Source of the DNA: an uncultured Ignavibacteria bacterium
Lineage (GTDB): Bacteria; Zixibacteria; MSB-5A5; RBG-16-43-9
Direction: 5' to 3'
DNA: 64,000 nt
NCBI GenBank assembly: GCA_964511075.1
Contig: CAZEDM010000004.1
Span: forward strand, 194,442-258,441
Below are positions 8,001 through 47,863 of the stretch, piece after piece. A program made the translations under genes and the position numbers. Every line of letters starts with the position of its first letter. Position 1 is the first letter of the stretch. The notes under the pieces are model-generated. The model did not search any database. It worked only from the letters and a program-made list of their open reading frames with translations, and was not told the origin of the DNA.

Positions 8001-11000
8001 AGCCATCACCTACAGCTACGAGAGGAATACAGAAGACCCCCGCATTGCCCATAATCTTAATATTAAATTGGATGAATATGGAAATGTATTAGAATCAGCC
8101 TCGGTGGTTTACTCGAGAATGATCGCTGATATATCTTTGCCCATAGAAACACAAGAAGCCCAGAGCAAAACGCTGATCACTTATGAACAGAATAAATTCA
8201 CTAGTAATGATATAGATACTGATAATGAATACCGCCTGAGACTGCCTTCAGAAGTAAAAACCTACGAACTGAAAGGTGTTTCAAAAACAACCCCTTTATA
8301 CACAGTGGGTGATTTTGGAAACATTTTATCTTCTGCTAATGATGTACCCTATCATCAAACAGAAGCCAATCCCACACCCGGAACTTCCCAAAAAAGATTA
8401 ATAGAGCACATGCGAAACGTCTATTATAAAAATGACCTCTCTGGCGCTTTAGCTTTACATCAATTAGAATCAAAGGGACTTCCTTTTGAAAGCTATCAGC
8501 TGGCTTACACGCCTGTACTTACTGACGATATTTTTGGCGCCAAGGTAAATACAGCCCTGATGCTGGAGGGTAAATTCACCCACAGCGAAGGCGATGATAA
8601 CTGGTGGATTGGTTCGGGCACAACGCAGTTCATAGAGGGAACAGAAACAGCAATCGATGCCCGAAATCGCTTTTATGTTCCCATTTCCTATACCGATCCC
8701 TATGGAGCTAAAACAAAGGTGAGGTATTATAAAGACTATTTCCTTTTTATTGAAGAAATAGAGGATGCCTTAGGCAATAGGTCAAAGGCAGAATCTTTTA
8801 ACCTCCGCACTCTTTCACCCCAGCGAATGAAAGATGCAAACAATAATCTCTCAGAAGCCATAACAGATGAATTAGGCTATGTGAAAGCAATGGCTGTTTT
8901 TGGGAAAGGAAATGAAGCAGATGACTTATCAGGGATAAATGAATATACTACTGCTGCTGAAAAAACTCAAATTATAAACTTTTTTAACGCCTCTGACTCT
9001 GTTCAATTAACTAACTTAGGGAAAAACTTGTTACAGCATGCCACAGCAAGATTTCTCTATGACTTTGAGGCATATAATGCTTCTGGAAAACCTGTGGTAG
9101 TCGCCTCCATTGTCCGGGAAGAGCATTTTCAGAAAAACAACAACTCGCCTATTCAGCTCAGCTTTGAATATTCCAACGGGCTTGGACAGGTAGTGATGAA
9201 AAAAGTGCAGGCGGAGCCCGGACTTGCCAACCAAGTGACAGTCAATCCTGATGACACCTATACCATTTCCGAAATTGACACCGCCACTCTCGTTCCAAAA
9301 CAGCTTCGCTGGATAGGAAACGGCAGAACGGTACTGAATAACAAAGGCAATGCCGTAAAACAATACGAACCGTATTTCTCCACAACGCCTAGATACGAAG
9401 ACCTGAAAGAATTGGTAGAAACAGGCGTTACGCCCATCATATATTACGATGCACTCGGACGTTTGATAAAAACTGAAATGCCAGATGGGACTTTGTCCCG
9501 TACAGAATTTGATTCGTGGAAGCAAGCCTTTTATGATCCTAATGATACCATCTTAGAATCTTCCTGGTACAACAACCGAACTAACCGCCTGATAGATGCC
9601 AAACTGATTGAAGCAGGCAAAGACCCCGGTAGAGAGAAATTAGCTGCCGATAAAGCCGCCAAACATGCCAATACGCCCAACGTCCAGCACTTTGACACTT
9701 TGGGCAGACCTGTCTTGTCCATTGATCATAATAAGAACCTGAGTACAGATGCAGATGAATTTTACCGTACCAAAGCAAAATTAGACATTGAAGGCAATCT
9801 GAGAAATGTGACCGATGCTCGTGGCAATGTGGTGATGCAATACAAATATGATATGCTGGGCAATAAAGTATATCAAAACAGTATGGATGCCGGACAGCGC
9901 TGGTTGCTGACCAATATCCTGGGCAACCCGCTGCGCACCTGGGACGAACGCAATCATGAGTTCCAATATTTCTATGACATCCTGCATCGTCCTACGCACA
10001 GCAAAGTGATAGGCGGCGATGGCGCAGCCCCTTTGGACAATGTCTTTGATAGAGTTTTTTACGGAGAAACAGCACCCAACCCTGAACCGAAAAACCTTAA
10101 AGGAAGGATTGTAAAACATTACGATACCGGCGGACTAATAGAAACACCTGAATACGACTTCAAAGGTCAGCCTTTATCAACTACCCGAAAATTATTTAAA
10201 AATTACAATTACAACAATGTAGCCAACTGGATAGATGCTAACTTAGTAAATGATTTAGAAACAGAGGAATTTACCTTCTTCACTGAAACGGATGCCCTCG
10301 GCAGAATTACCAAGCAAACCGCTCCGGATGGGAGTATCATTACACCTTCATATAACGAAGCCGGTTTGCTTAATGCTGAAATTGTAAAACATCCTCATCT
10401 TGCCAGCCCCTCTGCCTATATTAAAGATATCGATTACAACGAAAAAGGACAGCGCAATAAAATCATCTATGGAAACGGTGTCATCACCAAGTTTGATTAC
10501 GATAAAGAAACCTTCCGGCTTCTCCATTTAGAGACCAAAAGGCAAAACAACGATCCCTTGCAGGATTTGTATTATACCTATGATCCGGTAAGTAATATCA
10601 CTCACATAGAAGATAAAAATATTCCGGTCGCATTTTTTGATAACCAAAAAATCACCGGAGTTTCGACCAACACCTACGATGCCCTCTACCGTCTGGTGGA
10701 AGCCACAGGCAGAGAAAACAATTCTGCTTTGATTCTTGACAGCAAAGACAACTGGATCGATGCTGCTTTTATGCACAACATAAACCCTGGCGGCCCGATG
10801 GCTGTGCGGACCTATACACAAAGTTATCAATATGACGCCGTGGGCAACATCCTACAAATGCGGCATCAGGCAGCCGGGAACAACTGGACAAGAGATTACA
10901 ACTACCAGACAGCGAATAACCGATTAATCAGTACACAGGTTGGGGCCCATACCTACACCTACCCACATCACGCTCAACATGGTTTTATGAAAGCCATGCC

Positions 11001-34383: not shown

Positions 34384-35700
34384 TTACATTATCTCCCCGA
34401 AAAGGGTAAAACTATCCGCATCTGTAATTTTGACTTTTACAATTTCCCCAAGTAAATCTTTATCTTCTTTCTCTTTTGAAATTATCACCGTTTTATTACT
34501 TCTTCCCTTTCCTTTCCAGCTATTTTTATCCCTTTTGCTTTTGCCGTCTATCAGGACCTCTTCGGTTCTACCGATCAATTCCTGATTTTTTTTCTTGGCG
34601 ATATTTTTCTGCAGCTCTATCAAAGTCTGGAGCCTTTTTGTCTTCTCTTCCTGGGGAACATCATCCTCCAAAAGAAATGCCTTAGTCCCTTCCCTGGGCG
34701 AATACTTGAACATAAAGGCAGAATCAAATTCTATCTTTTTAACCATATCCAGGGTCTTTCGAAAATCATCCTCAGTCTCGCCCGGGAAGCCCACAATCAA
34801 ATCAGTGGTCAGGCTCAAATTCTGGATTTTGCCTCTGGTTAAATCTACCAGGCTCAGATAATCCGCTGAACTATATTTTCTGTTCATCCTTTTCAGGATT
34901 TTGTCCGAGCCGGACTGCAGGGGCAGATGAAGATGCTCGCATACTTTCTCCAAACCAGCCATAGCCTGGATTAACTTTGGAGACAAATCCTTGGGATGAG
35001 AGGTCATAAATCTGATTCTCCGAATTTCCGTATTCGAGACCTCTTTCAGAAGGTCGGCAAAATCATACCCCTCCTCTTTATAGGAGTTGACATTCTGCCC
35101 GATCAGGCTGACCTCCTTGCATCCGGATTCTATTAAGCACTGGACCTCTTTGATAATCTCCGAGACTTTTCTGTGTTTCTCCGCTCCCCGGACATATGGA
35201 ACAACACAGTATGAGCAGAAATTCTCACACCCCCTGGAGATTGCCACAAAGGCAGTGTATTTATTCCCTCTTTTAGGCAGAGCTTCGATTTCCCCTAACC
35301 CGGACAAAGAAAGAGCCACCAGGGGTCTCTCATTCTTCTCCTCCAGATATTCCGTAAGCTTGAAAAGCTCCTCAGTCCCCAGAACAAAATCCAGGGCTGG
35401 AACTTCCCTTAGGAATTTTTCACCTAATCTCTGAGCCATACACCCGATCACAGCTAATTTGACTTCAGGATTTTCCAGCTTGTATCTGGAAAGCTCATTT
35501 AACCTGCCAATTGCTCTGGTCTCCGCATGCTCCCTTACCGAGCAGGTGTTGACAATTATCAGGCTGGCTTCTTCAGATCTGTTGGTTATGGAATATCCTT
35601 TTTGCGTGAGGATACCCTTCAGCACCTCAGAATCATACACATTCATCTGACAGCCAAAGGTCTGGAAGAATACTTTTTTTGATGCAGGCTCTTTCCTCAT
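34384..35700 (-). CDS. miaB: tRNA (i6A37) methylthiotransferase MiaB
   Basis: UPF0004 N-domain FFQTFGCQMNVYDSE and VNTCSVREHAE, radical-SAM GCENFCSYCVVPYVRG, and a C-terminal TRAM domain. Confidence 0.9.
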   Translation of the reverse strand: MRKEPASKKVFFQTFGCQMNVYDSEVLKGILTQKGYSITNRSEEASLIIVNTCSVREHAETRAIGRLNELSRYKLENPEVKLAVIGCMAQRLGEKFLREVPALDFVLGTEELFKLTEYLEEKNERPLVALSLSGLGEIEALPKRGNKYTAFVAISRGCENFCSYCVVPYVRGAEKHRKVSEIIKEVQCLIESGCKEVSLIGQNVNSYKEEGYDFADLLKEVSNTEIRRIRFMTSHPKDLSPKLIQAMAGLEKVCEHLHLPLQSGSDKILKRMNRKYSSADYLSLVDLTRGKIQNLSLTTDLIVGFPGETEDDFRKTLDMVKKIEFDSAFMFKYSPREGTKAFLLEDDVPQEEKTKRLQTLIELQKNIAKKKNQELIGRTEEVLIDGKSKRDKNSWKGKGRSNKTVIISKEKEDKDLLGEIVKVKITDADSFTLFGEIM

Positions 35701-35924
35701 AAATGATATCTTTGCTCTTTTAACATTTCTTCTTTTATATCAATACGCTTCCCTGACTTCATCTGTTTTCAACACATTGGTGGCGGACATACTCTGAAGA
35801 GATAGGAAGTAAGCTATGGTTAAGGCCAAGGCCTATTCCTATGAGTATAGATGCAACAGATAACACTATTTATTCTAGAATCTGATATGACGGTAAATGC
35901 CTTTATTCATCAATACCATATACA

Positions 35925-36932
35925 TTATTGCCACCACTGTCCGATAAAGTAGATCCTTGTATCATCCAGCGAAAATACCGCATTATGACACAAGAAATCT
36001 GCTGGGAAATAGCCTGGAGTAATGACGTGGTTATCTGATCCATCAGAATTCATCATACAGAGATTATACTTACCTTCTCCCGCGATTGCAGCCAGAATAT
36101 ATACTATTTTATCTCCGGAGTGTGACCAGTTGGCAAAGCCCTGAGCGTACCCCTGGGAAGCGGTGCTGGTCAGGCTGGTTTCGGCACTGCCATCAGCAGA
36201 TATAACATAAATATCGTAGCCGCCCTGGGCAAAACTCACGTCCACCAGCCTCTCAAAAGCGATCTTATTTCCGTCAGGGCTGATTCGCGGGTCATAATCT
36301 CCAATAGGAAGGTTGGCATTGCCCCACAGGCCGGCATCAAGAGGGTCGGTTACCTGCTGGGGATCAGTGCCGTCCGATTTCACGGACCATATCTGATAAT
36401 CCCTGGTAAAAGCTATCCTTCCAGCGCTTCCCCAGTCGACGTCAGCGTCATGCCCGCCTGAATTGTAGAGTAACTGCTGATTCGTTCCGTCCCGGTTCAT
36501 GACGTAGAGATCCAGCGTACTGTCTCGCATTGAGAGGAAGACGATGCTTGAATCGTCAGGAGAAAAGGATGGATATGAATCGAAATAGTGATTGTCCGTG
36601 AGTCTGACCGGCACGCCGGCATTTACATCAAGGGTATAGATCTCGGAAGTTGTATCAATCCCAACCCCGCTCTGGGTTTTCCTGGAGAAGGCAAGATGAG
36701 TACCGGAGTTGCTCAGGTCGAGTCCCAGGATCTCGTCACCGGTGCTATAAAGCAAAACCACATCCTGCGAGGAAAGATCCAGGACATATATACCCCATTG
36801 ACCCTCATGGGGGACTGTCCTGTTTTTCGAATCCGTAGATTTCTTTTTACCGCATCCCATTGAGAATAACACCAGGATGCAAAAGGCTGAAACAAAAATA
36901 CAAATTGCTATTAAATTATTTCTTCCCCACAT
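35925..36932 (-). CDS. TolB-like (PD40) beta-propeller lipoprotein
   Basis: Lipobox LFSMGC. Repeated PD40-type blades (SFSPDDSSIVF, RISPDGNKIAF, WSHSGDKIVY). Confidence 0.7.
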   Translation of the reverse strand: MWGRNNLIAICIFVSAFCILVLFSMGCGKKKSTDSKNRTVPHEGQWGIYVLDLSSQDVVLLYSTGDEILGLDLSNSGTHLAFSRKTQSGVGIDTTSEIYTLDVNAGVPVRLTDNHYFDSYPSFSPDDSSIVFLSMRDSTLDLYVMNRDGTNQQLLYNSGGHDADVDWGSAGRIAFTRDYQIWSVKSDGTDPQQVTDPLDAGLWGNANLPIGDYDPRISPDGNKIAFERLVDVSFAQGGYDIYVISADGSAETSLTSTASQGYAQGFANWSHSGDKIVYILAAIAGEGKYNLCMMNSDGSDNHVITPGYFPADFLCHNAVFSLDDTRIYFIGQWWQ

Positions 36933-37016
36933 CTCTACCTCCCTTGAAAATATCTCCTGCGGTCAGCTCCCGAAAAAGGACGGTTGGGTATCGCTCATCT
37001 CTTGACATCTGGGAAT

Positions 37017-38813
37017 TCACGGTGATTTTATGTAATCATCCACTACCTTTGCCAGTATCTCCAGGGGCAGGCTGCCATTCTCCAGCACCCTCATGTGAAA
37101 ATCCTTGATGTCGAATTTCGAGCCCAGTTCCTTTTTGGCTTTTTCCCGAAGCTGCATAATCTTCAGTCTGCCGAGAGTGTAAGAGCAAGCCTGCCCGGGC
37201 CAGACTATGTAGCGGTCGATCTCGGCGCTGGAGGACCAGCCCAGGTTATCCTGCATATAGCTTGCCGCCTGTTCCTTGGTCCATCTCTTGTAATGAATCC
37301 CCGCATCCACAACTATGCGCACCGCGCGGAAAAGCTGGGAATTAAGCTCTGCTATGCGGGAATAGATATCCGGATGCCAGCCCGATTCCATAGCTAAGTT
37401 TTCTACATACATCGCCCATCCCTCTCCGAACCCGGATAAGAACCAGAGGTTTTTGAACATCCGGTTCTGGGTCAGCTCCTGCTGCAAGGCGATCTGGTAA
37501 TGATGCCCGGGAATGGTCTCATGGTAGGTCAGAGTGCGCATGTTCGGCTTGGGCAGCGGATACAGCATATTGACATAGAATACCGCTTTCCTTTTGCCGT
37601 CCAGGGAAGCAGGCTCATAATAGGTTAACCCGCCAGCTTCCTTGAATTCCGGAACCGGCTGAACCAGGACCTTTGTTCTGGGCAGGTAGCTGAACAGCTC
37701 CGGCAGCTTTTTCCAGGTGCTGTCGATCAAAGACTGGTAATCGCTCAGGATGACCTGGCCTCTGTCCGGGGTATCCGGGTAAAAGAACCTCTCGCGGTTC
37801 TCCGAACTATTCCACATAGCCCGGTATTCCCTGATCAGCTCCCCGTAAGTTCCATCTCCCCTGATTCCCAGCGAATCCAGAAGGATTCTGGCTTGTTCCT
37901 GCAGGGATTTTACCTCCTCCTGTCCTAACTGATAAACCTGTTCCGGAGAAAGGGAGGAGGTGGTCTGCATTTTCAGGCAGTATGCATAATATTCTTCTCC
38001 ATCCGGCAGTTTCCAGACGCCGGCTAAGCTGTCTGCTTTTGCAGAGGAGAGCTTAAGCTTCTGGATGAATTCTGCATAAGCCGGATAGATCTTCCCTTCG
38101 AGGATCTGCCGGGCTTTTTTGCATAAACCTTCGGCAGTGGCAGGGTCGATAGAGGCAAGCTTCCCTTTGAAATCGAGATAGAGAAGATTCGAGTCCGGCT
38201 GAGCTTGAAGGAAATCATTCATCTGGAATTTAACCCGCTCGATTATGAAGACGGGCGGGTATATTCCTTTTTTCTCCTGGGAGTCGATTCTACTCAGGAT
38301 CTGTTTAAGCCTCAGGGGATATTTTTCCAGGCGCTTTAAATAATCGTTTGCATCCTGCAGCCCATCGATGGTGTGGTATCCGGTGAGAAGGTTGGTTATC
38401 TGGCTGTGCACCCCGAACAGGTGGTCGATATAATAGCGATGGTCGACATATTTCTCCCCCTCCAGCTGAACTCCCAGCAGCCACTCCAGTATGGCGGCAT
38501 CGATTCCCTGCGAGGAAGTGATTTTAGCCTTGTCGATCTTCGCCAGGCTGTTCAGATATTTTCTTGCCAGGTCGTAATTAGCCTTTATCCCCGCATCCGA
38601 GAGATCGTTCAGTCCGTCCCGGTTATAATCATACCCGCTTTCCCGCGGCAAGCCCAGCTGGGAGGCCTCTTCCGGATTGAGCCTGATGAACTCCCTGAAA
38701 TAATCGTCAAAGACCTTCTCGATTTTAGCTGAATCCGGATTTACGAAGGGCTGGCATGATACTAAACTAAAAAGAGCTAACCAAACCGAAATTGCTAAGA
38801 TTACCTGTTTCAT
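37017..38813 (-). CDS. DUF885 family secreted protein
   Basis: Signal peptide present. The C-terminal region has TYHETIPGHHYQ and GFGEGWAMYVE, characteristic of DUF885. Confidence 0.75.
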   Translation of the reverse strand: MKQVILAISVWLALFSLVSCQPFVNPDSAKIEKVFDDYFREFIRLNPEEASQLGLPRESGYDYNRDGLNDLSDAGIKANYDLARKYLNSLAKIDKAKITSSQGIDAAILEWLLGVQLEGEKYVDHRYYIDHLFGVHSQITNLLTGYHTIDGLQDANDYLKRLEKYPLRLKQILSRIDSQEKKGIYPPVFIIERVKFQMNDFLQAQPDSNLLYLDFKGKLASIDPATAEGLCKKARQILEGKIYPAYAEFIQKLKLSSAKADSLAGVWKLPDGEEYYAYCLKMQTTSSLSPEQVYQLGQEEVKSLQEQARILLDSLGIRGDGTYGELIREYRAMWNSSENRERFFYPDTPDRGQVILSDYQSLIDSTWKKLPELFSYLPRTKVLVQPVPEFKEAGGLTYYEPASLDGKRKAVFYVNMLYPLPKPNMRTLTYHETIPGHHYQIALQQELTQNRMFKNLWFLSGFGEGWAMYVENLAMESGWHPDIYSRIAELNSQLFRAVRIVVDAGIHYKRWTKEQAASYMQDNLGWSSSAEIDRYIVWPGQACSYTLGRLKIMQLREKAKKELGSKFDIKDFHMRVLENGSLPLEILAKVVDDYIKSP

Positions 38814-38978
38814 AATCGCTCCTTTGCTTATATGTCATTCAAATCTGAGTTTGTCACAATAGGGTTTGTACTCTAAAATCTCGATACTGAATTATTATGA
38901 AGCATCACTTTAAACGACGAGGTTAATATTATATATTGCAAATAATTACATTGTAGTAACGACAAGGGGGGTTACCTG

Positions 38979-39030
38979 AAATTGCCCAAACAAATCAATC
39001 GTCGGGTGTCTTGCTCACCCAGAGCTATTT
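38979..39030 (+). repeat. Left copy of a ~50-bp direct repeat bracketing the vsr-dcm-GHKL-REC block
   Basis: AAATTGCCCAAACAAATCAATCGTCGGGTGTCTTGCTCACCCAGAGCTA. By hand alignment, about 39 of 49 positions are identical to 44226-44277. Confidence 0.6.
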
Positions 39031-39068
39031 CTCTGTCTCAAAACGATACTGCATCTAACATATTTTAT

Positions 39069-40349
39069 TTATCCCTTATCAATCGGCCAATAAACAGAAA
39101 CCACGCCTGGCCGATTAACATGTCTTGATATATATGACTGGATATCAACGAGTAATTCATGTCTGATTCTACCCAGAAGTTTTTTGCTGGATTTTTTTGT
39201 ATTAAGCGGTAAAGTTGTCAGACATCTGATATCAAAAACTAACCTGTATTTTTTATTTTTAATATTAACCAAAGGCGATATATAAAGATAGTCGGTCTTT
39301 CTCTTTATTTTTTTTGAATACTCTGAAGGCCACATAAGTCCTGGCATGAACCTGTAAACACGCATTTTTTTACAGGTGTAATCGCACACAGAAGAAACCT
39401 CTAGGAAAACATCTTCCACTGAATCAATCAAACCATCTTTGTCATGATATTGCCTTAAATCACCATCAAAAACGTCTTGTATCAAAGCAGGTTTTCTGTT
39501 ATTAATTCTCCCCTCATAAATATTCCCCGGTTTTATAGAATCATCATCTTCCACTTCAGCCATCAATAATCTTGAATTGATTTTTGAGACTATATCAGCA
39601 TCAGGTTTGCCTCTGATGCGGCTACTTTTGTTTTTTCCGGTATACTGAAAGTTTTTTATTGCACTTTCAAGATTGTCAATAAAAGCCATATTGAAAGTCA
39701 GAAGGGAATTTTTAGATATTTCGTTGATATTGCCTGGTTGAAGCCTTTCGCCGGCATAAGCCTTGGCAAGCTCGCGAGACACCATAAACATATTTTTGTT
39801 CCAATTCATATCTGAGGGATAAAATGATGAGAAATCATCCACTATTCCCCCTGCGGATTTATGAACAATGTTTTCCCATAAAACAAACAGATGGAATGCA
39901 CCAGCTTTGTCTAATTCATTCTTGAGACGGGATTCTATTCTGTTTAGATTGTAACCACCTCTTTTGTATTTGCATTCATTCTTACGAAGATCCAGTAAAA
40001 ACAATGGAGCATTTTTTGCTAGAGCATTTTTGATTCCTGCTTTTAGCTCTGTGTGTTTGGTCCATACAATCAAAATATATGGCCCGCTTACACCTGGACC
40101 AATTATACGATTAATAACTCCCACTGCTGTTGATACTTTGGTTTTATCGCTTTGGCCATCAGTGCCAAGTACTACATCCAAGAAAATAATACGCACTCCG
40201 GCGATAGGCTTTGTTGGTAATTCTTCTTGCTTGAGCCCCGTATAATAGAGTATCGGAATACCTTTTTTTGCCAAAACCTTCACCAATGGAAGTGCTTCAT
40301 CATCCTTATCATCAATTACTACTACTCTTCCACTTTCAGGTATATTCAT
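39069..40349 (-). CDS. Receiver (REC/CheY-like) domain protein with ~300-aa unknown C-terminal domain
   Basis: The N-terminal ~125 aa carry the receiver residue pattern: RVVVIDD (D13, D14), RIIFLD (D58), ILIVWT (T97), FLLDLRK (K123). The remainder has no motif I recognise. The start overlaps the upstream gene stop by 4 nt. Confidence 0.6.
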   Translation of the reverse strand: MNIPESGRVVVIDDKDDEALPLVKVLAKKGIPILYYTGLKQEELPTKPIAGVRIIFLDVVLGTDGQSDKTKVSTAVGVINRIIGPGVSGPYILIVWTKHTELKAGIKNALAKNAPLFLLDLRKNECKYKRGGYNLNRIESRLKNELDKAGAFHLFVLWENIVHKSAGGIVDDFSSFYPSDMNWNKNMFMVSRELAKAYAGERLQPGNINEISKNSLLTFNMAFIDNLESAIKNFQYTGKNKSSRIRGKPDADIVSKINSRLLMAEVEDDDSIKPGNIYEGRINNRKPALIQDVFDGDLRQYHDKDGLIDSVEDVFLEVSSVCDYTCKKMRVYRFMPGLMWPSEYSKKIKRKTDYLYISPLVNIKNKKYRLVFDIRCLTTLPLNTKKSSKKLLGRIRHELLVDIQSYISRHVNRPGVVSVYWPIDKG

Positions 40350-42451
40350 TTTGCCCTCTCTTTCCGAAATGCAAGAACGACGATTGCTCCGGACCTAAAT
40401 TCTTTAGGTACGGAAATTTCGCCTCTTTCAGGAAACATAATCTCTCCCCTATGTGCCTCCATCACGCTTTTTGCAATATGAAGTCCAAGCCCCATTCCAT
40501 CGGACTTGGCTGAAATAAAAGGTTTTGTAATTTCTTCCGTAGGCAGTGAGAAACCGGGGCCATTATCAGCTATTATGACAGACAAATAACCAGGAAGTTC
40601 ATCTGATAGGGAAATGAATATTTTCTTGTCCTTCATACCTCCATAATCAAGCCACCATATGGAATTATCAATAACATTTAGAATTGTTCCGATAACAAGA
40701 TTTCTTGCACATTTAAGTACAGGTTCACCCTTAAATCTGATATAATCCCTTATTATACTGATTTTGTGTGCGTTAAGTCTGAATTCAACATCAAAAATAG
40801 ATTGTTCAATAAGCTTTTTCATATCCTCTGATTTCCTGCCAGTGCTCCGGATAATAACACTATATCCTTCAACCAGTTGTGCAAGATGTTTAACTAAAGC
40901 AACAATCCTCGCTGATGGTTTTTCCTTCTCAATAACCTTGACAAGTTCCTCTATTATTTTTTCAGCTTCATGAATCACAACCCCAAGATTCAATCCTGCT
41001 CCAGCACTTTTCAAAAGCGTTTCATTGATAAACCTGTAATCATCTTCTATTCGCTTTAGATAAACAGAAATATCATCCTTTAATTTTATATCTTTGATTT
41101 TTGTCTCAACAAGATTTTTCAAATCAGCCAAATCAGAAATTACCGGCTCTGAGGCAGGCGTAGGCCCATAAAATGTCCTGATTTTATCCTTGTCTATTTC
41201 CCTGAATGTTTCTACCTTATCCAGAACATAAAGAATCGAGGCCTTGAAGACATTGAAAGCCTCATTATCAATGAACCCTTCCCTGTTAGTCTTCTCAATT
41301 AAATCCCTACTTTCCTTTCTCGAGAGATGAATAGCGCCTAGTATTATATTGTTGCTTATCCTTTTTGTAGGGACATTTACTCTCCGTAAGCCCAAATTAA
41401 GCCAGTCATTGCCCGGTTCACCGTAGTCATAAACCCTGATTCCATCTCTGTATATTCTTATTCCTCCGTTGATATCAAGATATTCCTTAAGCCCCTTTTT
41501 ATCTTGTACCCCCAAAGACAGTATCTTTGCATCTCTGTCAAAAATCAAAGCCTCAAATATAATCTTTCCTATCCGGGCTACAGACAGATCGATCGGCAAA
41601 TTATCCTTATCAACCATCTTTCTTATTTTTTTGATTTCAATGTCGTGTTCGGTAACCTGTCTGTGATGCAGCTTTCTCATAGTTGGCCAAGGCATGAACT
41701 TATATCTAAACTTTTCAATAAGATGTCCTTCAATTTCGCATTCAATCTTAAATAATGCATAATCCTTTATCTGCTGCCAAGACAATAATCCCTCAAGCCA
41801 TTCCTTCTTGTCTGTCTCAAAATTCACCCTGAAAGAATCTGGGGCATCAAAAGGAGAACAAAGAGAATTTATTGAACGATAGACTTCTCTTATCATGGCT
41901 TTATTCCACGTACCCTTCAATTTACTTATGATTATCTTAGTTCCACTTTTGTTGCCAGTAAAAACATCTGGAGTTCTCTCGGTTATCCTGACGGGAATTT
42001 CATCAAGATATTTTGACTCCTTGAAAATGTCCCAGTTAATTTTTATAACAATCTCTCTGCCGTGTTCTTTCCTAGTTATCATTTCAATTTCATTACCGAG
42101 TTTGTAAACGCTGAATCTTCCTATACCTTTTTCTCCTAAAGGAAGTCGCTTAAATTCTTTCCTCTTACTATCTCCCTCAAGAAGCTTCTCCTTGTAATCA
42201 CTTGCCGGTTCCATCCATACATTCTTTATTATCTCTAGATCCATACCCTTGCCATTATCTTCAACAGTAATAACACCTTTAACGCTATTATCAAGATTCT
42301 TCATTGATATATTGACATAGGCGGCATCAGCATCATAGGAATTCTTAACAAGCTCAAGCAAAGCTATACTCTCATTTTTTATCAGTTGATCACCAAGTTG
42401 TAATAGTAATCTTGCCCGAGGCTTAAAAATCACTTTATCCATGTCCGGCAT
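40346..42451 (-). CDS. Double GHKL ATPase: N-terminal MORC/MutL-like HATPase_c_3 plus C-terminal histidine-kinase-like DHp/CA core
   Basis: N-terminal Bergerat motifs ELVKNSYDA, DNGKGMD, GEKGIGRFS. C-terminal candidate H-box GVVIHEAEKII (H494), N-box ILNVIDNSIWW, G1 ADNGPGF, G2 DGMGLGLHIAKSVM. Confidence 0.7.
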   Translation of the reverse strand: MPDMDKVIFKPRARLLLQLGDQLIKNESIALLELVKNSYDADAAYVNISMKNLDNSVKGVITVEDNGKGMDLEIIKNVWMEPASDYKEKLLEGDSKRKEFKRLPLGEKGIGRFSVYKLGNEIEMITRKEHGREIVIKINWDIFKESKYLDEIPVRITERTPDVFTGNKSGTKIIISKLKGTWNKAMIREVYRSINSLCSPFDAPDSFRVNFETDKKEWLEGLLSWQQIKDYALFKIECEIEGHLIEKFRYKFMPWPTMRKLHHRQVTEHDIEIKKIRKMVDKDNLPIDLSVARIGKIIFEALIFDRDAKILSLGVQDKKGLKEYLDINGGIRIYRDGIRVYDYGEPGNDWLNLGLRRVNVPTKRISNNIILGAIHLSRKESRDLIEKTNREGFIDNEAFNVFKASILYVLDKVETFREIDKDKIRTFYGPTPASEPVISDLADLKNLVETKIKDIKLKDDISVYLKRIEDDYRFINETLLKSAGAGLNLGVVIHEAEKIIEELVKVIEKEKPSARIVALVKHLAQLVEGYSVIIRSTGRKSEDMKKLIEQSIFDVEFRLNAHKISIIRDYIRFKGEPVLKCARNLVIGTILNVIDNSIWWLDYGGMKDKKIFISLSDELPGYLSVIIADNGPGFSLPTEEITKPFISAKSDGMGLGLHIAKSVMEAHRGEIMFPERGEISVPKEFRSGAIVVLAFRKERAK

Positions 42452-43784
42452 TTTTTACCTCCCTGAATGTATCATAAACTGATTCCGCTATTTTCCTTGC
42501 AAGGAGTGGTGGCACTGCATTTCCTATCTGCCTGAAGATTTTGTTGTAAGGGCCCGCAAACCCTTCATGGTCAGGATACCAGTCAGGGAATGACTGGATT
42601 CTTGCAGCCTCCCTCACTGTGATTGTTCTTGCCTGACTACTGTCAGGATGAATGAACCTGTTGCCATCCTTCTGAAGATGTGCGAAAATAGTTGAACACG
42701 CCTTTCCCCAGCTCTGCTTCTTGTATTTGTCCTTGAAGCTGGACATATCATATTTTATCAACCTTCTGAGTCTTCTTATATTTTTGCTGTTGCTCTCAAA
42801 AATATCCTTTGCTCTCATCCCCTGCTTCATTCCCCTGAAAAGCAGAATATCATCCCTTTTCTGCCCTCTTGCAATATGATGAGTGAGAACAGTCTGGCCG
42901 TTCAGCTTAATAAAATCAAGAAAAGTCTTCCCTTTCTCCGTAAGAGAATTGTAGTGCGTGAGGAATAAATCATTATGATATGTAATTGAATCCTTGCCGG
43001 AAAATACCCTCTTGTTGTATCTTTCAATTTTCACTTTTTGATTATCTGTATTTATATCTGTAAACGTGATTTTTGCCTTCAGTTTGGGCAGGTCACCAAT
43101 CGCCTCGAATAGTGTAACATACTCTGAAGTATTGTGTGTTGGCAGTGGATACGGATTCTTTATTCCAAGGTTGTTCCCGATTAGAAACACTCTTTCTCTT
43201 GTCTGGGGAACACCATAATCAGCAGCATTAAGTATCATATAATCCGTTTTAATATCTTCATTTTCACTCTCAAAGGAATAACCAAGAGCTTTGAAGTAAG
43301 AAATGATTATATCAATGTACGTCCTGCCCTTGCTGTCCTTCTTGGAAAGTATCCCCTTGACATTTTCAAAAACAATAAATGAAGGTTTCAGCTCTTTAAC
43401 AAGAGAAATATACTCCTCATAGAGCCTGTCCATAATTCTATACTTACGGGGATTTCCTTTCTTTCCGTTTCCTGACCTCGGTCCTATCAGCGAGAAAGAC
43501 TGACAAGGCGGGCCACCGATTATAATATCCACCCCTTCCCTGCATCTTTTTACTATCTCATTGTGTATTTCCGGCTTGGTCAGATCAGCCTGAAGTACAA
43601 TTTCTTCATTCCCATATTCTTTTGAAAAATGTTTTCTAAGAGTCTGACAGGAATACCTTTCATTATCTACTGCAAGAACGACCTCAAATACCTTTCTGCT
43701 TCCGCCATCTCTAACAAGATCAAAGCCCAGTGAAAAACCACCAGCGCCTGCAAATAAATCCAGAACCTTTAGCTTATCTTTCAT
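42435..43784 (-). CDS. dcm: DNA (cytosine-5) methyltransferase
   Basis: Motif I LDLFAGAGGFSLGF, motif IV GGPPCQSFS, motif VI FENVKG, motif VIII QTRERVF, motif X GNAVPPLL. Confidence 0.92.
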   Translation of the reverse strand: MKDKLKVLDLFAGAGGFSLGFDLVRDGGSRKVFEVVLAVDNERYSCQTLRKHFSKEYGNEEIVLQADLTKPEIHNEIVKRCREGVDIIIGGPPCQSFSLIGPRSGNGKKGNPRKYRIMDRLYEEYISLVKELKPSFIVFENVKGILSKKDSKGRTYIDIIISYFKALGYSFESENEDIKTDYMILNAADYGVPQTRERVFLIGNNLGIKNPYPLPTHNTSEYVTLFEAIGDLPKLKAKITFTDINTDNQKVKIERYNKRVFSGKDSITYHNDLFLTHYNSLTEKGKTFLDFIKLNGQTVLTHHIARGQKRDDILLFRGMKQGMRAKDIFESNSKNIRRLRRLIKYDMSSFKDKYKKQSWGKACSTIFAHLQKDGNRFIHPDSSQARTITVREAARIQSFPDWYPDHEGFAGPYNKIFRQIGNAVPPLLARKIAESVYDTFREVKNAGHG

Positions 43785-44179
43785 ATCTTATCAATGATTT
43801 TCCGTTTGATTATTTTTTCATTTCTCATCTCATGCTCCCAGATTCTCAAAACTTTCCACCCTTTCTTCATGAGTTCCCTGTTTACAACTTTATCTCTTTT
43901 TACATTTGACTCTATCTTCTCTTTCCAGAATTTTATATTAGTTCTGGGTTTTATAAAACATCTGGGGCATTTATGCCAGAAACAACCATCAATGAATATC
44001 GCAATTTTCTTCCGGGGGAAAACTATATCAGGCTTTCCTGTGAGTTTATAATGAAGCCTGTATCCCTTCAGTTCGGAAGCAGATAACATTTTTCTCAGCC
44101 TGATTTCGGGCTGTGTGTTACTAGCCCTTATCATCGACATATTATAGCTGCGCTGTTTTTTTGTAAGAACATCGGTCAT
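43781..44179 (-). CDS. vsr: Very-short-patch repair endonuclease
   Basis: RSYNMSMIRASNTQPEIRLRKML...GKPDIVFPRKKIAIFIDGCFWHKCP. GGAGA RBS upstream. The stop overlaps the dcm start by 4 nt. Confidence 0.88.
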   Translation of the reverse strand: MTDVLTKKQRSYNMSMIRASNTQPEIRLRKMLSASELKGYRLHYKLTGKPDIVFPRKKIAIFIDGCFWHKCPRCFIKPRTNIKFWKEKIESNVKRDKVVNRELMKKGWKVLRIWEHEMRNEKIIKRKIIDKI

Positions 44180-44225
44180 TTACAGGTTTGTCTCCCTGGT
44201 TCACGATCGTCACACAGATCGCGGT

Positions 44226-44277
44226 AAATTGCCCGACAAACTCAATCGTCGGGTGGTTTGCGCAACCCGATCTACTC
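44226..44277 (+). repeat. Right copy of the direct repeat bracketing the defence block
   Basis: AAATTGCCCGACAAACTCAATCGTCGGGTGGTTTGCGCAACCCGATCTA. It contains a CCCGAC/GTCGGG hairpin and lies between the dnaJ stop and the vsr start. Confidence 0.6.
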
Positions 44278-44283
44278 CTATTT

Positions 44284-45450
44284 CTAAAACCCCAATGTAT
44301 TTTTTAACCTCTCAATAAAATCCTTATCCCCTTTTGGCGGCTTTATTCCGGACTTCTCCGAAAGCTCTTTTAATATTCTTTTTTCCTCAGAAGAAAGCGA
44401 AGTCGGTGTCCAGACCAGGACACGGACTATCTGGTCGCCTTTGCCATAAGAATGCAGATGGGGAATCCCTTTTCCTCTCAGCCTGAAAAGCCTGCCCGAC
44501 TGTGTGCCAGCCGGAATCTTTAATTTCACCCTGCCGTCCAGGGTTGGCACCTCTGCCTCGCTCCCTAATGCTGCCTGGGGAAAACCTATTGCCAGCTCGT
44601 AGAGCAGGTCGTCATCGTGTCTGGTAAAGTCCGGGTGCTCCTGCTCCTCGATGAAAACCAGCACGTCACCTGCAGGACCTCCCCTTTTGCCGTAATTCCC
44701 TGCACCCCGCACAGGAATATAGTTCCCGGTACTTACCCCCGGAGGCACTTTTACCGTAATGGTGCTTTCCCCTCTTGCCCTGCCGTCACCGCCGCAGGCT
44801 GAACAGGCTTTCTCGATCACCTCGCCTGAGCCGCCGCAGAGATTGCAGGTGGTAATTATAATAGACTGTCCCAAAAAAGAACGCGATACTTTTCTTGCCT
44901 CTCCTGTGCCGTGACAGGTAGGGCAGGTTCTTTTGGAAGTCCCTTTTTCTGCTCCGCTTCCCTCGCAGTCCGAACACCTGACCAGCCTCTTGAGCTTGAT
45001 CGTCTTCTCGACGCCCGTGGCAATCTCTTCCAGGGTCAGTTTAAGCTTGATCTGCAGATCCTCGCCCTTAACGGGTCCGCGCCTGGACCTGGAGGTTCTT
45101 CTTCCCCCGAAGATGTCTAAATCCTCGAACCCGAATGCCCCGAAATCCCGCATGAAAGTTCTCAGGGCATCCCCGATATCGAAACTCCCGAAATCAAAAC
45201 CCTCAAAGCCTGTTCCGGCTCCCACACCAACCCCTACATGCCCGAACTGGTCGTACCTTTTTCTTTTAGCCGGGTCTTTCAATACTTCATACGCCTCGGT
45301 TGCCTCCTTGAACTTCTCCTCAGCCTCCTTGTTCCCCGGGTTCCTGTCCGGATGGTATTGCAGAGCTAACTTCCGGTAAGCCTTTTTTACGTCCTCTTCG
45401 CTGGCACCTCTTTCCAGTCCCAGGACCTCGTAATAATCTCTTTTAGCCAT
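44284..45450 (-). CDS. dnaJ: Chaperone DnaJ
   Basis: J-domain [33 protein letters not shown], a G/F region, and four CxxCxGxG zinc-finger repeats. Confidence 0.93.
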
Positions 45451-45547: not shown

Positions 45548-47863
45548 CTATTTTATCTCTATTTTCTGACCTTTCCCCTTACGGACATTGGATATTATCT
45601 CCAGGTCTTTTTTGTATTTTTCGTTCTGCGGATCATGCTCCGCTGCTTTCCTTATATATACTTCTGCTCTGGCATAATCCCCTTTTCTGAAATAGACCCA
45701 TCCCCGGGTATCAAAGATGACCCCGGGATCCGAGGGATTTAAAAACAGTGCTTCATCGCAGAATCTCAGTGCCCAATCCAGGTCCTCATTCTTCTTAACC
45801 TTCTCCCAGGCAAACCCCTGGAGAAGGTCAGCCATCTTGTCTTTTTGAACCGAATCAGGATTCAAGGCAATAGTTGATTCTATCTCTTCTGACAACTCAT
45901 CCAGACTCTCGAGCTTGAAATAGGCACCGGCTAAAAGCAGGCTTAAAGAGACTTTTTCATCTTTACTTATACCGGGAATATCCAGTAAGAGTTTTGCCTG
46001 CTCCACAGCCCGCTCATATTCTCCCTGAACCAGATAAAGCTGAGCCAGGCTGATCCGGTTCAATACCATACTTGAGTCAGCTTCTATCCCTTTTAAAAAC
46101 TCCTTCTCCGCCAGAGCCGATTCCCCCTGTTCGGCAAAAAGTTCTCCTAATAGATTATGATTCATACCTGAGCCGTTCATCTTAACCGCTTTTTTGTATT
46201 CCTCCTCTGCCAGCTCCCGTCTTCCGGTTTTGTGAAAAAGCAGCCCTTTCCATTCGTGAACGTTCCCATAATCCGGGGCAAATTTCTGGAGTTTGTCGAA
46301 CCAATATTCTGATTCCGGATACCTCTTAAGCTCCGAGCTCAATGCTCCTAATAAAAACATAGCCTCCAGACAATGGGGATTTCTCTTGTACGCTTTTTCC
46401 AGCTCAGAAACAGCAGCAATCTTATTCTGTGAATCCATATAGAACTGCGCCCTTGCCAGATAGACATTGGCGGAGTATCCCCTTATCTGCCATATCCCGA
46501 AGAGGGTGGTGATAAATAAAATCAGAGAGTAGATGAGAACTTTCAATCCCTGCGGGAACTTTCCTGAAGAGGATGCCGCTGAGGTTTTTTCCATTCGAGG
46601 AGTTTTATCTTTTAAGGCCAAAGCCATAAGGAGAGAAAGATACAGCCAGAAGAAAAAATCAGGACCGGTCCATCTCAGGCTGACACAGACCAGACCCTGG
46701 ATCAAGCCTGCGGATAGTCCGCCGAGAAGGCCAAGTGCCAGAACCTTTTTGCCGGGGTCTTGTTCCTGCCGGATGAATTTGAAGGCTTTATAGTAGACCC
46801 CTCCCATTATCCAGACGAAAAGTGCCAGCCCGATTATCCCCAGCTCTGACCAGATTTCCAGATACTCGTTTTCCGCATGCAGGACGTTTCCCATGGGAAC
46901 GAGCTTATAGAAATCAGGGACAGAATAAGCCGGGAAAAATATCTGAAAATTCCCCAGCCCGACCCCGAACCACAAATCACTTTTTATGAGATTCCAGGCA
47001 GACTCCCATATTTTCAGACGGATGAATAACGACCCTTCCCCAGGAGAGGTCTGTGAAAATCTTTTCGCCAGGCTATCCGGACCTGTATCAATCAGGAAAA
47101 AGATAACCGTTACTGCTATAATCAGGAATCCCCAGAAAAGGATCTTTCTTCTCCCGGAAAATCTCCAGAGCTTAAACAGGAAAGATACGGCTCCTATGAA
47201 TAGAAAAGACAGGAGTGATGCAACGATTGCCCCCCTGCTTCTTGTCAGGAACAAAGCTGACAATCCCGCAAGAGATACCAAAAGATAAAATATTTTTTTC
47301 TTATCTGAGGAAAGCAGGAAGACCCAGGCAGCCAAAGGCAGAGTTATAGCCAAAAACCCTCCCAGGAAATTGGGATTGCCAAAAGTCGAGCTTATCCTTC
47401 CGGGATAGGGAGGTATCCAGGCGGCAAAGGAGACCCCTGCTGTTTGCAATATCCCTATCAGCGATACCAAGCCCGTTGATAGGATGACGGTTTTTATCAG
47501 GAAGGAAAGCTTCCTGAAATCCGGGACCGCATTCACTATCAAGAGGTACAGCAGGACGAAAAACACAAGCTTCAAAAACGCCATAGATGAAGCATATTTA
47601 TACTGGCTGAAAATCAAGGAGAGGATCGAATAGCCGCAGTAAAGTAGAATCGGATAGATAAGGGGAAATCTGATAGAACTTCTCCTGTATAAAAATTGAT
47701 TAAGGACAAAAATGAGAGATAGCCCTAAAATCAGGGTTTGAAAAAATACGGTCTTCAAAAGGAAACTGTGGCTCTGATTATAAGGAGAGCCGATCAGGGC
47801 AACCCCCAGGATCAAAAAAGAGAAAGACAGGACAATACCGTTATCTTTGAAAAAATTCTTCAT
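45548..47863 (-). CDS. O-antigen ligase/polymerase-like (Wzy_C) membrane protein with C-terminal TPR repeats
   Basis: About 10-12 TM segments with the TRSRGAIVASLLS motif region, then roughly 300 aa of TPR-like repeats. Confidence 0.7.
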   Translation of the reverse strand: MKNFFKDNGIVLSFSFLILGVALIGSPYNQSHSFLLKTVFFQTLILGLSLIFVLNQFLYRRSSIRFPLIYPILLYCGYSILSLIFSQYKYASSMAFLKLVFFVLLYLLIVNAVPDFRKLSFLIKTVILSTGLVSLIGILQTAGVSFAAWIPPYPGRISSTFGNPNFLGGFLAITLPLAAWVFLLSSDKKKIFYLLVSLAGLSALFLTRSRGAIVASLLSFLFIGAVSFLFKLWRFSGRRKILFWGFLIIAVTVIFFLIDTGPDSLAKRFSQTSPGEGSLFIRLKIWESAWNLIKSDLWFGVGLGNFQIFFPAYSVPDFYKLVPMGNVLHAENEYLEIWSELGIIGLALFVWIMGGVYYKAFKFIRQEQDPGKKVLALGLLGGLSAGLIQGLVCVSLRWTGPDFFFWLYLSLLMALALKDKTPRMEKTSAASSSGKFPQGLKVLIYSLILFITTLFGIWQIRGYSANVYLARAQFYMDSQNKIAAVSELEKAYKRNPHCLEAMFLLGALSSELKRYPESEYWFDKLQKFAPDYGNVHEWKGLLFHKTGRRELAEEEYKKAVKMNGSGMNHNLLGELFAEQGESALAEKEFLKGIEADSSMVLNRISLAQLYLVQGEYERAVEQAKLLLDIPGISKDEKVSLSLLLAGAYFKLESLDELSEEIESTIALNPDSVQKDKMADLLQGFAWEKVKKNEDLDWALRFCDEALFLNPSDPGVIFDTRGWVYFRKGDYARAEVYIRKAAEHDPQNEKYKKDLEIISNVRKGKGQKIEIK

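Follow-up and report, generated by a model that had tools for sequence, protein, structure and literature searches.

Two of the four genes in a small island on the minus strand of the DNA analysed here, a stretch of 64,000 nucleotides (nt) from an uncultured Ignavibacteria bacterium (the window; contig CAZEDM010000004.1), encode a pair of soluble proteins that resemble a two-component system. The larger protein, of 701 amino acids (aa) and here called GHKL-HK, is a MORC-like ATPase fused to a histidine-kinase core. The smaller (426 aa, here called the REC-effector) has a receiver (REC) domain followed by a conserved C-terminal domain. The other two genes are vsr and dcm, for a repair endonuclease and a cytosine methyltransferase. 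The chances seem about even that this mobile vsr-dcm cassette carries, in the pair, the non-methylase half of a module for defence or of restriction-like type, which would operate by means of a phosphorelay. The domains, the conserved catalytic residues, the gene order shared with relatives and the location of the island in a hot spot were all obtained from sequence analysis and structure prediction. All coordinates are positions in the window.

The ATPase-kinase protein and its receiver partner

The 701-aa protein begins with a Bergerat ATPase domain (Table 1), in which there are four motifs: motif I (E33/N37/D40, in ELVKNSYDA at 33-41), motif II (D65-x-G67-x-G69, in DNGKGMD at 65-71), motif III (G106-x-K108-G109-x-G111, in GEKGIGRFS at 106-114) and motif IV (G170-T171). 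Conservation was determined from 74 kinase/REC pairs across bacteria and archaea, and in these the ATPase residues (E33, N37, D40, D65, the G-loop and G170-T171) are kept in 73-74 of the 74, the one exception being a gap in the alignment. The ATPase is followed by a probable transducer domain of S5-like type, with a conserved segment GIRIYRDGIRVYDYGEPGNDW at residues 330-350 (including R335 and R339) and a second, EKTNREGF, at 386-393 (including K387 and R390); R335, K387 and R390 are present in all 74 pairs and R339 in 72.

The AlphaFold2 model of the 701-aa protein was built on 49 homologues and has a mean predicted local distance difference test score (pLDDT) of 72.5. In the model, a middle domain rich in beta structure comes after the N-terminal ATPase, then long helices (397-479), then a helical hairpin and finally, at the C terminus, an alpha/beta domain; a coiled-coil linker is predicted to join the transducer to the hairpin. 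When the model was compared with the PDB using Foldseek, the first ~470 residues matched SMCHD1 (6mw7), MORC2 with DNA (9cdj), Hsp90/TRAP1 and the N-terminal domain of MutL, in alignments of ~460-500 columns with E values of ~1e-10 to 1e-11; the probability was 1.00, yet the template modelling (TM) scores were 0.3-0.57 and the root-mean-square deviations 7.5-12 Å, on a whole model of the mean pLDDT given above. Judged by its motifs and its modelled fold, the N-terminal part is a GHKL ATPase of the MORC/MutL/Hsp90 type, with all catalytic motifs present, plus a probable transducer domain. No transmembrane segment was found in the 701-aa protein (the maximum Kyte-Doolittle mean over 19 residues is 1.51). 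That a DNA- or nucleotide-sensing clamp may be wired to phosphotransfer is a reasonable hypothesis.

The C-terminal part of the protein comprises a DHp-like helical hairpin and a CA domain. The H-box motif of the hairpin, GVVIHEAEKII (490-500), contains H494 and E495, which are kept in 74 and 73 of the 74 pairs, respectively; in a wider set of 67 representatives, the histidine is present in at least 90%. For the two helices of the hairpin (488-509 and 514-536) the confidence of the model is at its lowest (block pLDDT 38-64), and the DHp assignment thus rests mainly on profile alignment and conservation. A profile of residues 440-701, made from 18 diverse relatives, aligned end-to-end with the DHp and CA domains of ThkA (3a0r_A, E 2e-22), and also with FixL/YF1; in these alignments H494 falls on the H-box histidine of ThkA and FixL. 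Foldseek matched the last ~240 residues to the cytoplasmic DHp and CA domains of HK853 (~240-250 columns, TM on target 0.56-0.57).

The CA domain has an N box (N592/N596, in ILNVIDNSIWW at 590-600), a G1 box (D629-x-G631-x-G633, in ADNGPGF at 628-634), an F box (F645) and a G2 box (G652-x-G654-x-G656, in DGMGLGLHIAKSVM at 651-664). N592, N596, D629, G631, G633, G652, G654 and G656 are identical in 74 of 74 pairs and F645 in 70, and a phmmer search of PDB sequences matched this domain to NtrB and MprB. HisKA-type Pfam models (PF00512, PF07568, PF07730, PF19191 and similar) gave no match to the 701-aa protein at E<=1, and every match to an NCBIfam kinase equivalog was far below its cutoff. Taken on profile alignment, conservation and model, the C-terminal module is a genuine DHp and CA histidine-kinase core, and kinase activity is predicted.

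The REC-effector is predicted to begin with the (beta-alpha)5 pattern of a receiver domain, in a model of pLDDT 87. The residues of the phospho-acceptor pocket are in their expected places: D13-D14 after beta1, D58 (codon 40176-40178) after beta3, T97 after beta4 and K123 after beta5. D58 and K123 are present in all 74 pairs, D13 in 72, and position 97 is Ser or Thr in 72. The top Foldseek matches of the model are all response regulators (StyR, FixJ, PorX, and RR468 complexed with HK853). At the level of sequence the resemblance is faint: Pfam, NCBIfam and PADLOC scans of the window protein were all negative, PDB sequences searched with phmmer and with a profile yielded no more than a marginal REC match, and Pfam Response_reg weakly matched 7 of 51 members of the family (best E 0.0056). 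From the pocket and the model, the 426-aa protein has a canonical receiver fold with a full phospho-acceptor pocket, and it is a plausible phospho-acceptor.

A four-helix region connects the receiver to the C-terminal domain, which is the presumed output. Its motifs are P-G275-N-x-Y, (S/T)P-x-C322-D323-x4-K328, R333 and R413-P-G415; G275, C322 and D323 are found in 74 of 74 pairs, and K328, R333, R413 and G415 are nearly invariant. The C-D motif is present also in homologues on plasmids of Rhizobium and Campylobacter. Searches of Pfam (including a scan of each of the 51 members), NCBIfam, PADLOC and PDB sequences gave no match to this domain, and whole-model Foldseek searches of the PDB and BFVD returned receiver-domain matches only. 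A PD-(D/E)xK reading of the domain was considered and dropped: E317, D323 and K328 do not come in the order, or at the spacing, that it requires, and E317 varies among the relatives.

Most of these results agree with the sequence-only reading of this DNA, which had proposed two different GHKL modules in a single polypeptide, the second of them a sensor-kinase core, in a protein with neither transmembrane segment nor classical sensor domain, and had named the 426-aa neighbour as the protein to test for receipt of the phosphate. The motifs which it quoted are all at the residues that it gave, both ATP-binding sites are complete, and the structural comparison favours MORC2, SMCHD1, Hsp90 and MutL for the first part and HK853 for the second. 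The domain models that it named were recovered in part: HATPase_c_3 and HATPase_c score above their cutoffs, at a level well past what chance would produce, and a HisKA-type match was not obtained.

Distribution, gene neighbourhood and genomic site

Proteins of this kind are numerous. A word-indexed protein search with the 701-aa protein gave more than 5,000 matches, the top 120 of which are all ~700 aa long with both HATPase domains. When 1.84 billion representatives were searched exhaustively with HMMER, there were 1,191 clusters (50% identity) at E<=1e-30, and among these relatives the full-length architecture is retained down to ~28% identity; both HATPase domains are carried by 67 of 67 diverse relatives. 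In a survey of one genome per species, relatives occurred in at least 547 species genomes. The bacterial carriers include Bacteroidota, Bacillota, Planctomycetota, Chlorobiota, Spirochaetia, Nitrospirota and candidate phyla, and the archaeal carriers include Methanoregulaceae, Methanosarcina and Nitrosopumilaceae. The sequence-only reading had called the architecture unusual, which does not hold: the fusion was already described in 2021 (PMC8011034) and is widespread in bacteria and archaea, and is thus neither new nor rare.

Gene order was counted in the 79 best loci. The GHKL-HK gene has a REC-type gene directly downstream in 74 of 77 evaluable loci, and Dcm lies directly upstream on the same strand in 56 of 72; where there is at least 5 kb on both sides, any Dcm is found in 42 of 47 loci and any Vsr in 24. 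The conservation within the pairs is as would be expected if both ATP sites and His-to-Asp transfer were under purifying selection. The gene that follows the REC gene varies, as was seen in 67 evaluable loci. In 27, as in the window, the next 200 nt have no same-strand open reading frame (ORF) that reaches 80 aa; in 10 there is an HNH_2 endonuclease, which starts between 10 nt inside the REC gene and 8 nt past its stop; in 8, a Mig-like HhH-GPD glycosylase; in 4, Vsr; in 2 each, AspBHI_N + Mrr_cat, DUF2971, a second HATPase_c_3 protein or Dcm; and in 1 each, NOV_C, GmrSD_N or HNH; the remaining loci have other ORFs. The constant core is methylase, kinase and REC protein, to which nucleases are optional additions.

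The glycosylase, which is of the HhH-GPD/EndoIII type and has a cluster of Cys residues at its C terminus, comes directly after the REC gene in loci L002, L003, L008, L009, L011, L023, L024 and L069, and is probably a Mig-like T:G mismatch glycosylase that replaces Vsr. In one protein from a JGI metagenome (P0193, 695 aa), an HhH-GPD glycosylase is fused to the REC protein. This fusion was considered as a clue to the function of the effector and was rejected: since the same glycosylase is a separate gene in eight loci, it is most likely that two neighbours in an operon were joined and that the fusion is an analogue of Vsr. In two further loci (L030 and L042), a protein with AspBHI_N and Mrr_cat, from a family of restriction enzymes dependent on 5-methylcytosine (m5C), follows the REC gene and there is a C5 methylase in the operon, a combination which is potentially self-conflicting unless the specificities differ.

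Relatives are carried by 287 plasmid records, 147 of them conjugative. A Rhizobium plasmid has the pair with dcm, vsr, EcoRII-C and HNH, a Burkholderia plasmid has the pair with vsr and dcm, and conjugative plasmids of Campylobacter have the kinase, a ‘response regulator’ and dcm. With respect to phages, full-length relatives were found only on two unannotated 5-6 kb ‘Bacteriophage sp.’ contigs, which are not informative. In Methanosarcina mazei, only a few genes separate the pair from cas1, and a methylase is lacking. In an uncultured Cenarchaeum (OY282369.1; L028 and L038) three to four kinase/REC pairs are arrayed in tandem and the flanks contain no Dcm, which suggests that in some archaea the pair has expanded by paralogy as a stand-alone module.

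In the window, the four ORFs (39069-44179) overlap successively by 4, 17 and 4 nt in the order vsr, dcm, GHKL-HK, REC-effector (Table 1). The island has a GC content of 0.378, compared with 0.444 in the rest of the window, and is bordered by two copies of an element of ~54 nt; the hairpin pattern of this element has 2 matches in the window where 0 are expected. A close relative of the window, the metagenomic contig L086, was compared over the corresponding region (window 34384-45450 and L086 5921-11246). DnaJ of the two is in the same cluster at >=90%, the ACT protein is 94% identical and MiaB 86%. L086 has the same dnaJ-miaB flanks, but between them DarT and a Macro-domain DarG, and it has a single copy of the ~54-nt element (~9835-9880). 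As the same flanks enclose DarTG in one genome and a different cassette in the other, the dnaJ-miaB site is a hot spot for the exchange of accessory cassettes. As a toxin-antitoxin system, DarTG is well established in defence against phages. There is no integrase or transposase in the island.

Table 1. Positions of the island genes, of the domains they encode and of the bordering repeats (all on the minus strand).
Feature	Position	Extent	Assignment
vsr	43781-44179	132 aa	First gene of the island; very-short-patch repair endonuclease; Pfam Vsr E 1.2e-23; NCBIfam TIGR00632 138 bits (cutoff 97.9); stop overlaps dcm start by 4 nt
dcm	42435-43784	449 aa	C5 cytosine DNA methyltransferase; Pfam DNA_methylase E 1.4e-59; TIGR00675 182 bits; overlaps GHKL-HK start by 17 nt
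GHKL-HK	40346-42451	701 aa	MORC-like ATPase fused to histidine-kinase core
N-terminal Bergerat ATPase domain	41939-42367	residues 29-171	Pfam HATPase_c_3 E 1.5e-19, 70.8 bits (cutoff 25)
Probable transducer (S5-like) domain	41267-41938	residues ~172-395	Foldseek alignments and conservation
DHp-like helical hairpin	40844-41014	residues 480-536	H494 (codon 40970-40972), then E495
CA domain	40361-40834	residues 540-697	Pfam HATPase_c on 590-676, E 1.8e-17, 64.2 bits (cutoff 26.4)
REC-effector gene	39069-40349	426 aa	Start overlaps GHKL-HK stop by 4 nt
Receiver (REC) domain	39960-40331	residues 7-130	(beta-alpha)5 pattern, AlphaFold2 model
Conserved C-terminal domain	39105-39602	residues ~250-415	Presumed output/effector; block pLDDT mostly 83-95
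~54-nt element, copy 1	44226-44279		Directly after dnaJ stop; left island border; hairpin CCCGAC-N10-GTCGGG
~54-nt element, copy 2	38979-39032		37 nt past REC-effector stop; right island border; imperfect direct repeat of copy 1

The dnaJ-miaB interval of the window also holds a DUF885-like protein (37017-38813) and a lipoprotein-like ORF of 335 aa (35925-36932), where the local GC is ~0.51. Between dnaJ and the ACT-domain gene there is a multi-pass membrane protein of 771 aa with C-terminal TPR-like repeats (45548-47863, minus strand); it is missing at the matching position in L086, and is a further insertion or deletion between the two genomes. Elsewhere in the window is a Tc (ABC) toxin-complex locus of two giant ORFs on the plus strand. 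The first (5047-12369; 2440 aa) has SpvB, TcdB middle N/C, FG-GAP and RHS repeats and is TcB/TcC-like, and the second (13909-23637; 3242 aa) has ABC_toxin_N, a neuraminidase-like domain and the TcB-binding domain of TcA, and is TcA-like.

A proposed phosphorelay and its alternatives

We infer which ligand the pair senses, in which direction control runs and what kind of output results, and the following mechanism is offered in that sense. The MORC-like ATPase and transducer would stand in for a sensor domain. In a step dependent on ATP, the N-terminal parts would dimerise or clamp on a cytoplasmic ligand, the likeliest being DNA that lacks the m5C mark of the adjacent Dcm. The signal would pass via the coiled coil to the DHp/CA core, which would autophosphorylate H494, and the phosphate would then move to D58 of the partner. 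Phosphorylation would release or activate the partner's C-terminal domain, which would act on the invader or on the cell; control of the operon-coupled HNH_2 nuclease may be what the partner does instead in some relatives. Dcm would protect self DNA, and Vsr would repair the T:G mismatches that arise by deamination of m5C, thereby limiting the mutagenic cost of methylation.

This explanation is supported by the domain matches, the conserved ATP sites, histidine and Asp pocket, the tight synteny, the overlapping genes and the low GC of the island. A role in defence is supported by DarTG at the same dnaJ-miaB site in a close relative, by cas1 near the copy in M. mazei, by the nucleases and defence genes that relatives have after the REC gene, and by carriage on plasmids. 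There is also a precedent for phosphorelay in immunity, namely Detocs, which no longer defends against phage once the His of the kinase or the Asp of the receiver is mutated [Rousset et al. 2023; 10.1101/2023.01.24.525353].

Several observations weigh on the other side. Some 10% of the loci with long flanks have no nearby Dcm, so that dependence on methylation is not universal. Binding of DNA by the MORC-like module is suggested solely by similarity of fold. The island in the window has no recognised nuclease other than Vsr: a check for a Type II restriction-modification (R-M) system with Pfam, PADLOC and NCBIfam scans found the methyltransferase, and Vsr as the sole recognised endonuclease. 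The partner's C-terminal domain is without a recognisable nuclease or toxin signature, its universal polar residues being only C322, D323, K328, R333 and R413. PADLOC recognised neither protein of the pair as a defence component, save for a similarity of the N-terminus of the 701-aa protein to REase_II. Finally, full-text literature searches found no later experimental study of the family to which the pair is compared below.

There are three other explanations, each of which is weakened by the lack of a DNA-binding output, by loci without dcm or vsr, or by how strictly the phosphotransfer residues are conserved. According to the first, which is unlikely, the pair is a regulatory two-component system that senses a cytoplasmic cue (such as the level of nucleoside triphosphates or the state of DNA) and controls the expression or activity of the methylase or R-M genes, and is not an effector; a regulatory role toward R-M genes was the speculation of Bellieny-Rabelo et al. 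(2021; PMC8011034). The chemistry of kinase and receiver is the same as in regulatory systems, the linkage of the pair with R-M genes is strong, and the pair on the Rhizobium plasmid adjoins a complete dcm-vsr-EcoRII-C system. However, Pfam scans detected no helix-turn-helix or other DNA-binding output domain in the REC protein, the domain with the invariant C-D motif resembles an enzymatic or interaction module more than a transcription factor, the window has no separate restriction enzyme to regulate, and the pair is also found without any methylase.

The second explanation is that the GHKL module aids T:G repair, in the manner of MutL stimulating Vsr/MutH in E. coli, with the REC protein as an adaptor. 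The Foldseek similarity to the N-terminal domain of MutL, the functional interaction of MutL and Vsr [cited in PMC2292703], and the frequent linkage of the pair with Vsr, or with a Mig-like glycosylase after or fused to the REC gene, are in keeping with this. It is nevertheless quite improbable, as half of the loci have neither Vsr nor glycosylase, tandem arrays and the pair beside CRISPR genes have neither dcm nor vsr, a repair adaptor has no need for a fully conserved kinase core and phospho-acceptor pocket, and the hot-spot location and the exchange with DarTG point to conflict rather than housekeeping. The least probable is that the C-terminal GHKL and DHp regions are an ATP-regulated dimerisation module, like the C-terminal domains of MutL/Hsp90, with REC a pseudo-receiver for docking: the failure of HisKA-type Pfam models to reach threshold, a Lys at H+4 in place of the Thr/Asn typical of bifunctional HisKA kinases and the low model confidence of the DHp region speak for it, and against it stand the conservation of H494 and E495, of the N, G1, F and G2 boxes and of D13, D58, S/T97 and K123 in the partner, the histidine of the wider set, and the end-to-end profile alignment with solved kinases.

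To return to the phosphorelay, a wider claim is possible and is put forward tentatively: that such pairs constitute a phosphorelay restriction system, in which a MORC-type, ATP-driven clamp would serve as the input of a histidine kinase, and recognition of unmethylated foreign DNA would be converted into a phospho-signal and thence into the action of a receiver-gated effector of new fold, with the C-D motif. Such a system would be distinct from Detocs and from the R-M types, which are defined enzymatically, and would be present in hundreds of bacterial and archaeal species, largely invisible to Pfam and PADLOC. If the phosphorelay model were right, the pair would be the second case, after Detocs, of two-component chemistry used directly in immunity, and a far more widespread one; it would be the first such immune system with a MORC-like GHKL ATPase as sensor, and an unrecognised effector domain would be added to the defence repertoire. 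Members of the MORC family silence foreign or repetitive DNA in eukaryotes, and with the pair, the way in which MORC-type clamps read DNA, or the state of its methylation, would become tractable in bacteria. The DHp and REC parts of a large clade escape the present domain libraries, and current models miss most of the family; consequently, the genes are annotated as ‘sensor histidine kinase’, ‘ATP-binding protein’ or ‘hypothetical protein’.

Comparison with known systems

The closest published counterparts are the pairs described by Bellieny-Rabelo, Pretorius & Moleleki (2021), whose starting point was a gene of Pectobacterium that encodes two HATPase domains (PF02518; PF13589), and who defined the DHp-like HEF_HK (PF19191) and the REC-like Response_reg_2 (PF19192). 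In that entirely computational work, genes for the two were linked in 91.6% of 644 regions; HATPase_c_3 + HEF_HK + HATPase_c was the predominant architecture (‘group 1’, 174 of 222 sequences); the neighbourhoods were enriched in C5 methylases, Vsr and HNH_2; and the family was proposed to branch from the paraMORCs of Iyer et al. 2008 [all from PMC8011034]. The window pair and its relatives have in common with these a soluble HATPase_c_3 + DHp (H-E) + HATPase_c protein, an adjacent protein with a REC-like N-terminus (DD, D, T and K kept) and no other known domain, a C5 methylase upstream, and Vsr and HNH_2 as frequent neighbours. In contrast, the published set is 70% Proteobacteria [PMC8011034], whereas the clade of the window is mostly from Bacteroidota, Bacillota, candidate phyla and archaea.

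PF19191 has no match on the window protein at E<=1, and among 67 relatives it has weak matches to 3 (best E 0.0048). No scan reported PF19192, be it of the window protein, of the 51 REC-family members, of another 10 homologues from genomes or of those on plasmids, the presence of this model in the library being unconfirmed; the plasmid homologues scanned for the two models were from Rhizobium, Burkholderia, Campylobacter and Klebsiella. In a search for a bona fide proteobacterial HEF_HK member, the Klebsiella plasmid locus gave no blastn match in E. coli genomes. A Chitinophaga member of the family is named ‘Response receiver domain-containing protein’ in UniRef, which we take to be the description line of PF19192. 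Because the two models do not match, the window pair is filed as a divergent member of the published kind and not as a member at the level of Pfam. What is new here is that the clade of the window is not captured by the Pfam models which define the published family.

Detocs comprises DtcA, a TPR-kinase, DtcB, a stand-alone REC ‘buffer’, and DtcC, a REC-PNP protein that is an ATP-nucleosidase effector [10.1101/2023.01.24.525353]. By analogy, the proposed model is alike in that a cytoplasmic kinase and a REC-effector would act directly in immunity and not in the control of transcription. The island pair differs in having two components only, without TPR, PNP or a third REC protein, and Detocs has no methylase. 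No sequence relationship between the pair and Detocs was detected beyond the generic histidine-kinase and REC folds.

The prokaryotic GHKL + S5 ATPases of the MORC/paraMORC group, which belong to R-M systems [Iyer, Abhiman & Aravind 2008; PMC2292703], share with the 701-aa protein an N-terminal GHKL domain with intact motifs and an association with cytosine methylases, Vsr and HNH endonucleases, and probably also a transducer of S5 type; the R-M neighbours of the pair and its relatives are Dcm, Vsr, HNH_2, Mrr_cat and GmrSD_N. Here, however, a complete histidine-kinase core forms the C-terminal extension, with a receiver protein as partner in place of a helicase or a fused nuclease. The BbrUII/HgiDII restriction enzymes (NF050001) likewise have an N-terminal HATPase_c_3 regulatory head, and the HgiDII type also pairs with C5 methylases; the NCBIfam model matches residues 16-194 only (model 10-183 of 659), with 84.4 bits against a cutoff of 550. 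The same kind of head is found in GHKL-Shedu (VcSduA/paraMORC3), a DNA-targeting defence protein that requires both its ATPase and its nuclease residues [PMC12137116]. Thus, BbrUII/HgiDII and GHKL-Shedu have the nuclease within the polypeptide of the ATPase, whereas the 701-aa protein has a kinase core.

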